From IMG/VR virus record IMGVR_UViG_3300029305_005988, positions 59,096 to 123,095 of that record: a stretch of DNA of 64,000 bases. One strand, given 5' to 3'. This document shows positions 37,636 through 39,942 of this stretch, piece after piece. A model generated the notes under the pieces. It searched no databases. It was not told where the DNA came from and saw only the letters and a list, made by a program, of their open reading frames with translations. The DNA comes from a virus (lineage: Duplodnaviria > Heunggongvirae > Uroviricota > Caudoviricetes). The first letter of the stretch is position 1, and each line of letters begins with the position of its first letter. A program made the position numbers and the translations under genes.

Positions 37636-38814
37636 ATGCTAAATCCACAAACTAATGAAAGAGAGTTGGCTTACGTAGCTAAAATAGAGGAAATAAGACC
37701 TATTCCTAACTATGACCGAGTAGAACATGCGCGCATTGGCGCCGGTTGGTGGGTTATTGTTAAAAAAGATGAATTTAAGATTGGCGACCTTTGCGTATAT
37801 TTTGAGGTTGATTCAAAGGTGCCTGAAACTGATCCTTTTATGTTCCTTGAAAACAAGCACTTTAAGGTGAAAACCCTTAAGATGTGTAAAGTGCTAAGCC
37901 AAGGACTTATTATCCATCCTTCAGAGTTCAAATTTGAGCGGGAGCTTGTTGAAGGCGAATTCCTTACTAAGGAGTTGGATATCACTTATGCCGAAGCCGC
38001 AGATAATGAGCGCAAGAGCTCAGGTGTAGATAAATACAAAAAGATGGCTCAGCGCAGACCTAACATCTTTAAAAAGCGCTGGGCGCGTTGGATGATGAAG
38101 CGCGAATGGGGTCGCCGCCTAATGTTCCTTCTTTTCGGTAAGAAAAAAGATAAGAAGTCGGGCTGGCCTGCCTGGGTCCAGAAGACTGACGAAGAGCGCG
38201 TACAAAACTGTGGCTGGCTATTCGACGGTCGCGATACTGGAACTTGGATTATGACTGAGAAGATCGATGGTACTTCTACCACTTTCACTATGAAGGGTAA
38301 AGAGTTCTTCGTATGCTCTCGTAATGTCGTCTTCGATAAGCCAGATAAAAAGTGCTTCTATGAGACTAATGTTTACACCGAAATGGCTGTAAAATACAAT
38401 ATGGAAGAAGTAATGCGTAAGTGGATGCAAGATATGAAAGAGGCTGGCAAGCCGCTTGAGTTCTTAACCATTCAGGGTGAAACCTACGGAGCAGGAATTC
38501 AGAAGCGTGATTACGGTATGAAAGATCATGATCTAGCAATTTTTAATGTAATCTATGGCTATAAAGACGGACGCGTTGAGCGCCTAAACTCTTATCTCAT
38601 GGCTGGAGAGTGTGAACTTCGTGGTTTAAAGTCAGTTCCTATTCTTGGAGATATTAAACTACCTGCTACTTGTGAAGAAGTGCTTGCTCTTGCTGAAGCT
38701 GAAAAATCTAAGATCGACGGCGGTATGAGAGAGGGTATTGTATTCCGTTCAGAAGACGGTGTGAATAGTTTTAAAGCTGTCTCAAATGCTTTTCTACTGA
38801 AATACCACGGATAA
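37636..38814 (+). CDS. ATP-dependent RNA ligase (KxDG nucleotidyltransferase; Rnl2/Rnl5-like)
   Basis: motif I MTEKIDGTS at ~aa 200 after N-terminal domain. Confidence 0.55.
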   Translation: MLNPQTNERELAYVAKIEEIRPIPNYDRVEHARIGAGWWVIVKKDEFKIGDLCVYFEVDSKVPETDPFMFLENKHFKVKTLKMCKVLSQGLIIHPSEFKFERELVEGEFLTKELDITYAEAADNERKSSGVDKYKKMAQRRPNIFKKRWARWMMKREWGRRLMFLLFGKKKDKKSGWPAWVQKTDEERVQNCGWLFDGRDTGTWIMTEKIDGTSTTFTMKGKEFFVCSRNVVFDKPDKKCFYETNVYTEMAVKYNMEEVMRKWMQDMKEAGKPLEFLTIQGETYGAGIQKRDYGMKDHDLAIFNVIYGYKDGRVERLNSYLMAGECELRGLKSVPILGDIKLPATCEEVLALAEAEKSKIDGGMREGIVFRSEDGVNSFKAVSNAFLLKYHG

Positions 38815-38825
38815 AATAATAAAAA

Positions 38826-38852
38826 ACACCGCGACCATGCGGTGTTTTTTGA
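38826..38852 (+). terminator. rho-independent terminator
   Basis: aaaaacaccgcgaccatgcggtgtttttt. Confidence 0.7.
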
Positions 38853-38915
38853 TTTTTAATAAAAATTATGTTATAATAAATTATAAAATAAAAGAGAAAA
38901 AGGAAAGGGGCAAAA

Positions 38916-39383
38916 ATGAGCAAATTGATTATGATGATTGGAGTACCGGGTTCTGGAAAATCAACCTGGGTTCAAAATAACAAATCTGAAACCGATATTC
39001 TTGTGTCAAGAGATGCAATTCGATTTGCAATGCTTAAAGAGGGCGAAGATTATTTCGCACATGAAACCGAAGTTTTTAATGAGTTTGTCTGGCAAATTGC
39101 AAATGCTTTAGCAGAGGATAAGACTGTAATTGCAGATGCCACTCATTTAAATAAAAACGCACGCAAAAAAGTGCTTGATAAAGTGCGCAAACTTGCAGAT
39201 GAAATTGAAGCGGTAATGATAGATGTACATCTTATTACTGCAATTGAACGCAATGACAATCGTACAGGGCGCGCATTCGTTCCGCGTGGAGTAATTCGTA
39301 GAATGTATTTTTCAATGGAACCTCCTACAAAGGAAGAGGGGTTTGACAAAATAACTTTTATTAAGGAGGAGAACAATGAGTAA
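38916..39383 (+). CDS. polynucleotide 5'-kinase (T4 Pnk kinase-domain-like P-loop)
   Basis: MIGVPGSGKSTW (Walker A), SRDAIR, VPRGVIRRMYFSM ~ T4 Pnk. Confidence 0.7.
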   Translation: MSKLIMMIGVPGSGKSTWVQNNKSETDILVSRDAIRFAMLKEGEDYFAHETEVFNEFVWQIANALAEDKTVIADATHLNKNARKKVLDKVRKLADEIEAVMIDVHLITAIERNDNRTGRAFVPRGVIRRMYFSMEPPTKEEGFDKITFIKEENNE

Positions 39384-39942
39384 GATTTGGGTAACTTCAG
39401 ACCAGCATTTTTCGCATATTCAGCCCTTTGTATGGGAAGCAAGAGGATATGCTAATGTTGAAGAAATGAATACAGAACAGATTAAAAAATGGAATGAAAT
39501 CGTGGGGAAGGATGATGAAGTATGGTTCCTTGGCGACGGAATGATGAACAATAATGTTGCGGGCACAATGTGCTTCTCACAACTTAACGGCAAGATCCAT
39601 GTGGTGACCGGCAACCATGATTCGCCTGCACGACTCGAAATTTATAAACAGCTTGGATTTGATATTCAAGATGGCAAAAGATTAACCTATAAGAAAAAGA
39701 ATTTTATTTTGTCTCACGAACCTGTTATTACTTCAAATGGTAGCTTTAAGGGTTGGCGCGATACGGTGAATATTCACGGCCATACTCATCAAACTAGCAA
39801 CTTTACAAAAGGCTATCCTCTGATGTATCATGCTGGAGTTGATAGTCATAATGGATATCCAGTGTTGTTAGACGATATTATTGAAGAAATGGATGCGCAC
39901 TGGAAAAATTTGGAAATTTGCAAGGAGGGTAAAAATGATTGA
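39376..39942 (+). CDS. calcineurin-like metallophosphoesterase (candidate 3'-phosphatase / 2',3'-cyclic phosphodiesterase)
   Basis: TSDQHFSH, GDGMMNNN, GNHD, GHTH metal-ligand motifs. Confidence 0.55.
   Translation: MSKIWVTSDQHFSHIQPFVWEARGYANVEEMNTEQIKKWNEIVGKDDEVWFLGDGMMNNNVAGTMCFSQLNGKIHVVTGNHDSPARLEIYKQLGFDIQDGKRLTYKKKNFILSHEPVITSNGSFKGWRDTVNIHGHTHQTSNFTKGYPLMYHAGVDSHNGYPVLLDDIIEEMDAHWKNLEICKEGKND

Follow-up and report, generated by a model that had tools for sequence, protein, structure and literature searches.

RNA healing and sealing is the classic phage answer to tRNA-targeting host defenses, now known to be widespread. Here, we analyze a locus of three consecutive genes, encoding an RNA ligase, a polynucleotide kinase (Pnk) and a metallophosphoesterase (MPE), at positions 37636-39942 of a stretch of 64,000 nucleotides (nt) from the IMG/VR virus record IMGVR_UViG_3300029305_005988 (Caudoviricetes). 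This whole stretch is called the window throughout. We read the locus, with a probability of roughly 65%, as an early-expressed phage RNA end-healing and end-sealing module composed of three separate proteins.

In phage T4, Pnkp and Rnl1 counter the anticodon nuclease PrrC, and there, likewise, an early kinase, a 3'-phosphoesterase and an ATP-dependent RNA ligase are encoded by the phage. The kinase core of T4 Pnkp is homologous to the window kinase, and an Rnl1-type ligase occupies the same slot in sister phages. However, in T4 a HAD (DxDxT) 3'-phosphatase is joined to the kinase in one polypeptide, whereas the window encodes a stand-alone kinase and a separate candidate MPE, and the T4 ligase is Rnl1, whereas that of the window is Rnl5-type with an N-terminal OB domain. 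The bacterial systems Pnkp-Hen1 (Clostridium thermocellum) and Pnkp1-Rnl-Hen1 (Capnocytophaga) parallel the locus in their three chemistries, with a CthPnk-like kinase and a phosphatase of the MPE superfamily, and Pnkp1-Rnl-Hen1 uses a separate ligase polypeptide, as does the window (PMC4411300). Neither Hen1 nor another methyltransferase was found in the larger open reading frames (ORFs) of the window that were scanned (small ORFs were not covered exhaustively) or, by Pfam annotation, in the flanks of its relatives.

The ligases DraRnl (Deinococcus radiodurans DR_B0094) and NgrRnl share the layout of the window ligase, an N-terminal OB domain followed by a nucleotidyltransferase domain without any C-terminal domain, but lack about 50 linker residues that the window ligase has in common with the family phrog_968. 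A further point of comparison is HD-Pnk (Runella slithyformis; D. radiodurans DR_B0098). Three viral relatives of the window, L011, L012 and L104, encode a kinase-HD protein, whereas the window kinase is free of an HD fusion. In Runella HD-Pnk the HD domain is N-terminal, whereas the phage fusions have the order kinase-HD. The operon partner of DraRnl is a DEDDh-like gene (PMC5397189), while the genomic partners of the window ligase are the Pnk and the MPE.

For jumbo phages, the accessible part of the survey by Iyer et al. 2021 (PMC7824862) describes tRNA arrays as well as polynucleotide kinases and phosphoesterases, occasionally calcineurin-like or HD, that accompany ATP-dependent RNA ligases. 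The ligases named in this part are Rnl1, Rnl2 and RtcB (PMC7824862); an exchange of Rnl5 and Rnl1 in one slot, an aq_1665-type MPE next to a stand-alone kinase, and a Bacillota-gut prevalence are not described there. The gene syntax has already been predicted computationally for jumbo phages, and the module is not a new principle. What is added here is the combination of Rnl5, minimal Pnk and aq_1665-type MPE, the Rnl5/Rnl1 exchange, the complementarity of MPE and HD domain, and the abundance of the kinase-MPE pair. The module would show an RNA repair pathway rebuilt from different parts, namely an Rnl5 ligase, a minimal Pnk and an aq_1665-type MPE. It offers a direct experimental handle on two points: the in vivo role of Rnl5, which the literature calls "uncharted" or "not known", and the function of the aq_1665 MPE.

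Gene layout and the three proteins

All three ORFs are present on the + strand exactly where the sequence-only reading of this DNA had placed them. Their family matches are strong and they are conserved across many related contigs, and hence they are not chance ORFs. The locus comprises the following features (lengths of proteins in amino acids, aa):

36663-36691, + strand: extended -10 promoter of sigma-70 type, TTGACT-17-TGTTATAAT, upstream of the sigma-factor/ligase unit; 11 of 12 consensus positions, TG present
36738-37619, + strand: gene of a phage sigma-70 family factor with the domains Sigma70 r1.2, r2, r3 and r4
37636-38814, + strand: predicted Rnl5-type ATP-dependent RNA ligase, 392 aa
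38820-38851, + strand: intrinsic terminator, 14-bp stem followed by a T run, closing the sigma-ligase unit
38849-38877, + strand: extended -10 promoter, TTGATT-17-TGTTATAAT, of the kinase-MPE unit, with the ribosome-binding site AAAGGGG downstream
38916-39383, + strand: predicted stand-alone 5'-OH polynucleotide kinase, 155 aa
39376-39942, + strand: aq_1665-type binuclear MPE, 188 aa

Only 16 nt lie between the end of the sigma gene and the ligase start, and both genes are probably co-transcribed. The 101 nt between ligase and kinase, in contrast, hold a strong terminator, a promoter immediately after it, and then the ribosome-binding site. This arrangement indicates two transcription units instead of one operon, so that the single-module wording of the sequence-only reading does not hold. 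The promoter core WTATGTTATAATAA occurs in 15 copies in the window (15467-57623; e.g., at 35112, 36680, and 38866), all of them on the + strand, where 0.22 copies would be expected. Judged by these motifs, the sigma-ligase and kinase-MPE units apparently share one promoter class, which would be read by host sigma-70 and therefore be early. Within the second unit, the MPE gene shares its first 8 nt with the kinase gene (ATGAGTAA), and the Shine-Dalgarno sequence of the MPE, AAGGAGG, sits inside the kinase gene. Overlap and internal Shine-Dalgarno sequence suggest that the expression of kinase and MPE is coupled.

A near-identical cassette of terminator and promoter is also found at approximately 35070-35130. 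Directly 3' of an intrinsic terminator, WTATGTTATAATAA thus occurs in at least two places (approximately 35070-35130 and 38820-38880) as a repeated cassette. A part of the cassette is read, spuriously, as the N-terminus of the listed ORF at 35083-35787, the true start of which is probably the ATG at 35161. On the DNA level, 50,697 deposited phage records yielded only short matches of 60-75% to the region, all within the sigma gene, and hence the window has no close sequenced relative among the deposited phages.

The ligase combines an OB domain (PF21189 PHA02142, aa 11-93, E=2.4e-23 in Pfam) with a nucleotidyltransferase domain at aa 177-390, within which PF09414 RNA_ligase is matched over aa 203-382 (E=5.4e-18). 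The family phrog_968, "RNA ligase", is matched over its full length (E=1.2e-61). Among solved structures, the Rnl5 ligase of Naegleria gruberi ranks first (5cot, E=3.3e-26), with T4 Rnl2 far weaker (1.8e-6). Motif I reads K209-I-D-G, with the codon of the nucleophile K209 at 38260-38262. Ligase residues were mapped by HMMER alignment to NgrRnl (5cot), with roles according to PMC7261155. The OB domain aligns to NgrRnl 5-121, R4 and D53 being kept as R9 and D59. Likewise kept are T145/D146/R149 (T184/D185/R188 in the window ligase), K170, D172, and R190 (K209, D211, and R229), as well as E227, F248, E312, and K326 (E282, F303, E366, and K380). All ATP and metal contacts of NgrRnl that were examined are conserved, and the catalytic residues are thus intact; Lys121 falls outside the stretch covered by the N-domain alignment, past its end, and is unmappable. 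The protein ends 12 residues past K380 (motif V), leaving no C-terminal domain. Its two domains are joined by a basic, lysine/arginine-rich linker (approximately aa 118-176), which is about 50 aa longer than in NgrRnl but usual in phrog_968 (profile of 398 positions). The NCBIfam equivalog DRB0094 is matched below its threshold (95 bits vs. a cut-off of 151).

From these matches, the first protein is predicted to be an Rnl5-type (DraRnl/NgrRnl-like) ATP-dependent RNA ligase. None of the DNA-ligase or capping-enzyme families, to which the sequence-only reading had pointed as a possible refutation, was matched by the protein. Furthermore, the window encodes a separate NAD-dependent DNA ligase at 50154-52103, which argues against the Rnl5 enzyme as the replicative DNA sealer. 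A related Rnl5 ligase, L012:2205-4571, carries an in-frame LAGLIDADG intein (Intein_splicing and LAGLIDADG_2); its insertion site corresponds to residues ~187/188 of the window ligase, beside Arg188, which binds the gamma phosphate of ATP. In the annotated phages PAK_P1, Cece, Aes012, and Mic1, no kinase or MPE adjoins the Rnl5-like ligase, and hence the module is not universal for phage Rnl5 genes.

The kinase matches AAA_33 (E=3.4e-22) and phrog_505, "polynucleotide kinase" (E=1.4e-24). Among the structures in PDB, the kinase domain of CthPnkp ranks first (4gp7, 2.4e-8), followed by T4 Pnk (1ly1, 4.1e-7) and PSTK (7.6e-6), and Capnocytophaga Pnkp1 (4xrp) is matched with 4.1e-5. The P-loop reads G9-V-P-G-S-G-K15-S16-T17, in line with the consensus GxxxxGK(S/T) and its essential Lys and Ser; K15/S16 correspond to CthPnk K21/S22. 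The general base D33 and its partner R36 are equivalent to CthPnk D38/R41 (T4 D35/R38), T76 to CthPnk T80, and the lid arginines R112/R116/R119 to CthPnk R116/R120/R123, with ERNDNRTGR (E111-R119) facing ERNKNRTDR (E115-R123). In CthPnk, the acceptor-site Asp/Arg pair, the Thr at the first phosphodiester and the lid Arg on the NTP gamma phosphate have assigned roles and mark the enzyme as a polynucleotide kinase, not a small-molecule kinase (PMC3902929). The sole difference among the residues examined is Pro11 in place of the P-loop Ser17 of CthPnk; the mapped catalytic residues are intact. D33, R36, T76, and R116 together with G9, G14, and K15 of the P-loop are invariant in a kinase alignment reaching down to 29% identity. 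A T4-type HAD (DxDxT) fusion is absent: the protein consists of a 155-aa kinase core only, which matches phrog_505 over positions 1-146 of 295. By homology, the second protein is thus predicted to be a Pnk-type 5'-OH polynucleotide kinase closest to CthPnk and T4 Pnk.

The third protein matches Metallophos_2 (2.2e-8), Metallophos (4.9e-6), and phrog_547, "phosphoesterase" (5.5e-40). Its motifs D9-x-H11, G53-D54, G79-N80-H81-D82, H114 and G135-H136-T-H138 are joined by D156/H158. In 41 homologs, D9, H11, D54, N80, H81, H136, and H138 are invariant and H114 is nearly so. The metal site is intact, with all binuclear MPE motifs present (DxH, GD, GNH[D/E], H, GHxH), which define the superfamily only. 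A sequence search of the MPE against PDB gave no match. Fold comparison was run on an AlphaFold2 (AF2) model with a predicted local distance difference test (pLDDT) score of 93.9. Within the MPE superfamily, both fold and sequence are closest to aq_1665 (Aquifex, PDB 1xm7), a protein of unknown function. The signature of the MPE clade of lambda phosphatase and the Pnkp phosphatase is the motif II variant GDxxDRG. Neither by this motif nor by its closest structure does the MPE fall into the lambda-phosphatase/CthPnkp clade; it belongs to the uncharacterised aq_1665 subfamily, for which we found no literature.

In summary of the family assignments, the sequence-only reading had proposed a KxDG RNA ligase with motif I near aa 200 and the Rnl5/DraRnl layout, which agrees with K209 in KIDG, an OB domain at the N-terminus and the missing C-terminal module. 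It had also placed the P-loop kinase near T4 Pnk, which holds with CthPnk first, T4 Pnk next and the acceptor-site Asp/Arg pair present, and had recognized a calcineurin-type metallophosphoesterase, as confirmed by the Metallophos families and phrog_547.

Kinase, phosphoesterase and ligase in related viral loci

By kinase alignment, 80 viral loci were fetched; clustering at 90% kinase identity reduces them to 60, whose median pairwise identity is 40%. Kinase, MPE, and ligase neighbors in these loci were scored with hidden Markov models (HMMs) built from homologous sequences. Among these related phages, an MPE gene begins within 300 nt 3' of the kinase in 47 of 60 clusters, mostly overlapping or abutting it, and lies within 2 kb in 53 of 60. 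An RNA ligase is encoded within 6 kb of the kinase in at least 36 of 60 clusters (Rnl5-type in 32, Rnl1-type in four); in L064, a further divergent Rnl1 was missed by the HMM. Three loci (L011, L012, and L104) have ligase and kinase without an MPE. Here, the kinase ORF of about 305 aa is fused to an HD domain (PF01966, E=9e-7), the kinase-HD protein of L012 being 47% identical to that of L011. We take this architecture to match that of the characterized HD-Pnk-type end-healing enzymes (Runella HD-Pnk, DR_B0098). The kinase-HD fusion beside a ligase in these three loci shows that, in this phage group, the partner of the kinase is an interchangeable phosphoesterase.

Starting from the MPE instead, an alignment scan of 185,579 species genomes revealed 43 loci. 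All 13 of the closest MPE homologs have a kinase just upstream, 12 of them within ~270 nt and one at 500 nt. The MPEs tied to a kinase thus represent the sub-clade nearest to the window protein and not the whole MPE family. The kinase-MPE pair is found in large phage contigs, binned mostly with Bacillota metagenome-assembled genomes (MAGs) from ruminant and other animal guts.

A subset of the relatives is syntenic with the window and shares the gene order MVP-like - HNH - pyrimidine-dimer glycosylase - sigma - [ligase] - kinase - MPE - ORF - DUF5662 - RNase H. In these metagenomic contigs, identity to the window amounts to 46-68% for the sigma factor, 44-74% for the kinase and 45-77% for the MPE, and the sigma gene forms the conserved upstream border of a ligase slot. 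L110 has the same Rnl5 ligase in this slot (78% identical). In L015-18 and L025, it is occupied by a very divergent Rnl5-like protein, which in L015 comprises 478 aa and matches phrog_968 with E=1.5e-56 but gives no usable BLAST match to the window ligase. In L019, L020, L026, L047, and L105-107, the slot holds a T4 Rnl1-type ligase (PF09511 with E down to 5e-18, phrog_562 with 1e-45, PDB 2c5u with 1.7e-6). DNA homology between the window and L105 stops at 37612, the end of the sigma gene, and resumes at 39358, the kinase/MPE junction, while protein identity forms a mosaic (sigma factor 58%, kinase 46%, MPE 77%, DUF5662 91%). As far as these family assignments go, the slot retains a predicted RNA ligase while the ligase family changes. 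Both swaps, Rnl5/Rnl1 at the ligase position and MPE/HD beside the kinase, can be regarded as natural experiments arguing for functional equivalence.

Some of the syntenic loci (L105-L107, L015, and L019) encode an extra protein of 245-261 aa between ligase and kinase, PF27173 YomU_Tube (phrog_2729, "virion structural protein"). In the same loci, an ORF of ~106-110 aa overlaps the kinase start, where the window has the terminator-promoter cassette only.

Proposed pathway and competing explanations

In the proposed pathway, an RNase, typically a metal-independent ribotoxin of the host or a competitor, would cut RNA and leave a 2',3'-cyclic phosphate or 3'-phosphate and a 5'-OH. The MPE would hydrolyze the cyclic or 3' phosphate to a 3'-OH, the Pnk-type kinase would phosphorylate the 5'-OH end, and the Rnl5-type ligase would seal the resulting 3'-OH/5'-PO4 break through ligase-AMP and AppRNA. 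Ligation would probably take place at a duplex-like (nicked) geometry, e.g., in a still-folded tRNA or another structured RNA.

For the MPE, we propose a role as 2',3'-cyclic/3'-phosphate end-healing enzyme on the basis of gene context. This context strongly supports the MPE as the 3'-end healing step, since kinase and MPE are coupled in 47 of 60 loci and an HD fusion appears in loci without the MPE. No other 3'-end healing enzyme was found in the ORFs of the window that were scanned. The sequence-only reading had suggested that the MPE could supply the 3' step in the manner of bacterial Pnkp. Gene context speaks for 3'-end healing, whereas membership in the Pnkp clade does not hold, and because the MPE is placed outside this clade, the analogy to bacterial Pnkp is functional at most.

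From the combined evidence, we infer the substrate of the MPE, RNA rather than DNA as the material under repair, and tRNAs cut by host anticodon nucleases as the targets. The counter-defense role gains from the Rnl1-type ligase in the slot of sister phages, as the Rnl1 family is tailored to breaks in RNA stem-loops (PMC4408790). For tRNA as target speak these sister-phage ligases, the 24-27 tRNA genes of the window, and the general picture of tRNA-directed defense. DraRnl and NgrRnl act on duplexes whose 3'-OH strand is RNA, where they seal 3'-OH/5'-PO4 nicks in a Mn2+-dependent manner (PMC5397189, PMC4408790). One may speculate that a folded broken tRNA, or breaks in tRNA or rRNA helices, would reconcile a nick-sealing Rnl5 with a tRNA target.

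Several observations weigh against the three-protein RNA repair module. The characterized Rnl5 enzymes are duplex nick sealers and NgrRnl is "comparatively feeble" on single-strand RNA (PMC4408790), so that sealing of anticodon-loop breaks is not a given; DraRnl, moreover, is implicated in DNA repair after irradiation (PMC5397189). Terminator and promoter part the ligase from kinase and MPE, and the MPE itself lies outside the lambda-phosphatase/CthPnkp clade. Most of its more distant homologs (at most ~40% identity) stand alone, and in Herelleviridae phrog_547 is found near RNase H and DNA polymerase genes without kinase or ligase. Clues to the host are indirect only (Bacillota MAG bins, extended -10 promoters), and neither a host nor a host nuclease was identified, a search for host anticodon nucleases not having been possible. 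Finally, the surveyed loci stem from related phages, and common ancestry inflates the co-occurrence counts. However, descent alone accounts less easily for the repeated exchange of partners (Rnl5/Rnl1; MPE/HD) while the kinase stays the same.

Among the competing explanations, repair or replication at DNA ends or RNA-DNA junctions, with kinase and MPE healing 5'-OH/3'-phosphate DNA ends and Rnl5 sealing nicks with a short ribonucleotide patch on the 3'-OH side in support of phage genome replication or repair, seems unlikely to us. Its model is DNA end healing as by T4 Pnkp combined with nick sealing of the DraRnl type (DraRnl: PMC5397189). Deletion of DraRnl renders D. radiodurans more sensitive to ionizing radiation and delays genome reassembly (PMC5397189), and Rnl5 enzymes tolerate DNA on the 5'-PO4 and template strands (PMC5397189, PMC4408790). 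The module is also situated in an early region of replication and nucleotide metabolism (RNase H, gyrase, DnaB-like helicase, RecJ-like exonuclease, pyrimidine-dimer glycosylase), and the association of the MPE family with RNase H and DNA polymerase in Herelleviridae points the same way. On the other hand, a T4 Rnl1-type ligase takes the same slot in sister phages, a dedicated NAD-dependent DNA ligase is present in the window, and recurrent neighbors in the relatives are RNA-related (PIN-PhoH, DUF2828). We judge it similarly improbable that only ligase and kinase act on RNA ends, while the MPE is a neighbor with another job, e.g., as nuclease, as phosphodiesterase against host cyclic-nucleotide immune signals, as nucleotide/Ap4A hydrolase, or as protein phosphatase. 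Such independence fits poorly with the translational coupling that links the MPE to the kinase at 47 of 60 diverged loci, with the kinase-linked MPEs being just the sub-clade closest to the window protein, with the presence of a kinase-fused HD phosphoesterase in exactly those loci that lack the MPE, and with the lack of another 3'-end healing enzyme among the window ORFs scanned.

The kinase could further be of a tRNA-directed PSTK/KTI12 type, acting on aminoacyl-tRNA or in phage tRNA modification. It matches KTI12 in Pfam (3.7e-8), PSTK in NCBIfam (1.9e-11) and PSTK in PDB (7.6e-6), and the phage has many tRNAs, including an odd tRNA(UCA). However, CthPnk and T4 Pnk score better, all CthPnk acceptor-site and lid residues examined are conserved, the conserved partners are RNA ligases and phosphoesterases, and the tRNA(UCA), with 76 nt and G33, is not a tRNA-Sec. 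PSTK possesses an additional tRNA-binding domain, for which the 155-aa kinase core leaves no room. We therefore regard this explanation as very improbable.

The three-protein RNA repair module also has a broader version, which we put forward only tentatively: kinase and MPE would form a widespread, as yet uncharacterized two-protein RNA end-healing enzyme of large phages from Bacillota-rich gut and rumen samples, with Rnl5 interchangeable with Rnl1 in the same pathway. If true, this would be the first physiological assignment for the Rnl5 family, namely the mending of structured RNA or tRNA cut by nucleases in the course of infection, and the first biochemical role for the aq_1665 MPE subfamily.

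Neighboring genes and tRNAs

Downstream of kinase and MPE, PIN-PhoH or PhoH genes occur in 36 of the 80 related loci. Proteins of ~500 aa with DUF2828 and DUF7788 are encoded directly 3' of the pair in 14 of 80 (e.g., L033:7613-9106 and L095:7474-9075). The window has neither. DUF2828 is presumably TROVE-related. The DUF2828/DUF7788 and PIN-PhoH neighbors suggest a larger RNA-metabolism island around the module. Upstream, 2.6 kb from the ligase, the window encodes an 829-aa protein (32561-35050, + strand) in which a Major Vault Protein (MVP) "shoulder" domain (PF11978, E=2.2e-24) is accompanied by a weak vault-repeat match; this protein is 73-77% identical in L019, L025, and L110. MVP-like proteins are found in four of the 80 loci, while SPFH/Band-7-flotillin proteins stand beside kinase and MPE in 27 of 80, which are more distant relatives. 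In a further-reaching version of the proposal, the MVP/SPFH, DUF2828, and PIN-PhoH neighbors would constitute, together with the module, a larger phage assembly for RNA repair and quality control.

ARAGORN predicted 24 tRNA genes in the window and Rfam 23, the union of 27 agreeing with the about 27 tRNAs counted in the sequence-only reading. The following matches were obtained by Rfam but not by ARAGORN:

23076-23198, + strand: tRNA match spanning 123 nt, suggesting an intron or other insertion
20425-20495, + strand: tRNA match
23855-23926, + strand: tRNA match

Another tRNA-like gene of 99 nt (42221-42319, + strand; 56 bits in Rfam) lies 2.3 kb downstream of the MPE, in the gap that separates RNase H from the next ORF. 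Its variable arm is long and its anticodon loop has 8 nt (CTCTAAAAC); ARAGORN reports the 4-base anticodon taaa. Either a tRNA-Leu(UAA) whose loop is enlarged or a tRNA resembling frameshift suppressors could be encoded here. The tRNA-SeC(tca) called by ARAGORN at 26200-26275 (+ strand) is not genuine, as it has 76 nt, G33 in place of U33, and no Rfam call.

Long ORFs are sparse on both strands in the first 15 kb (1-15000), where frames of at least 120 codons cover about half of the sequence at a G+C content of 0.40, as elsewhere. Stop-codon recoding was considered here in view of the tRNA(UCA), but reassignment of TGA, TAG, or TAA gave no clearly longer genes, and the tRNA has G33. Instead of recoded genes, the region seems to hold a run of numerous small ones, and the window gave no sign of stop-codon recoding.

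The DUF5662 protein (40713-41420, + strand) is conserved downstream of the module in the syntenic relatives with up to 91% identity, its invariant residues being H27, H54-D55, H93-H94, H100-H101, and D129. Its AF2 model (pLDDT 89, all-helical) gave no significant fold match in PDB. An assignment as HD-type phosphohydrolase is unsupported, since a profile-profile comparison aligned the HD motif only (probability 2.8%) and a permissive Pfam search revealed no HD domain. DUF5662 may be a metal-dependent enzyme whose fold has yet to be solved.

Finally, the gyrase B gene is split in the window into an N-terminal HATPase/DNA_gyraseB part and a C-terminal Toprim/GyrB_C part, with an unassigned ORF of 218 aa between them (43891-45171, 45477-46133, and 46271-46912, all on the + strand). 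The split is probably due to an intron or a homing-endonuclease insertion; among the relatives, L106 has a GIY-YIG homing endonuclease that splits gyrB, whereas the gene of L105 is intact.

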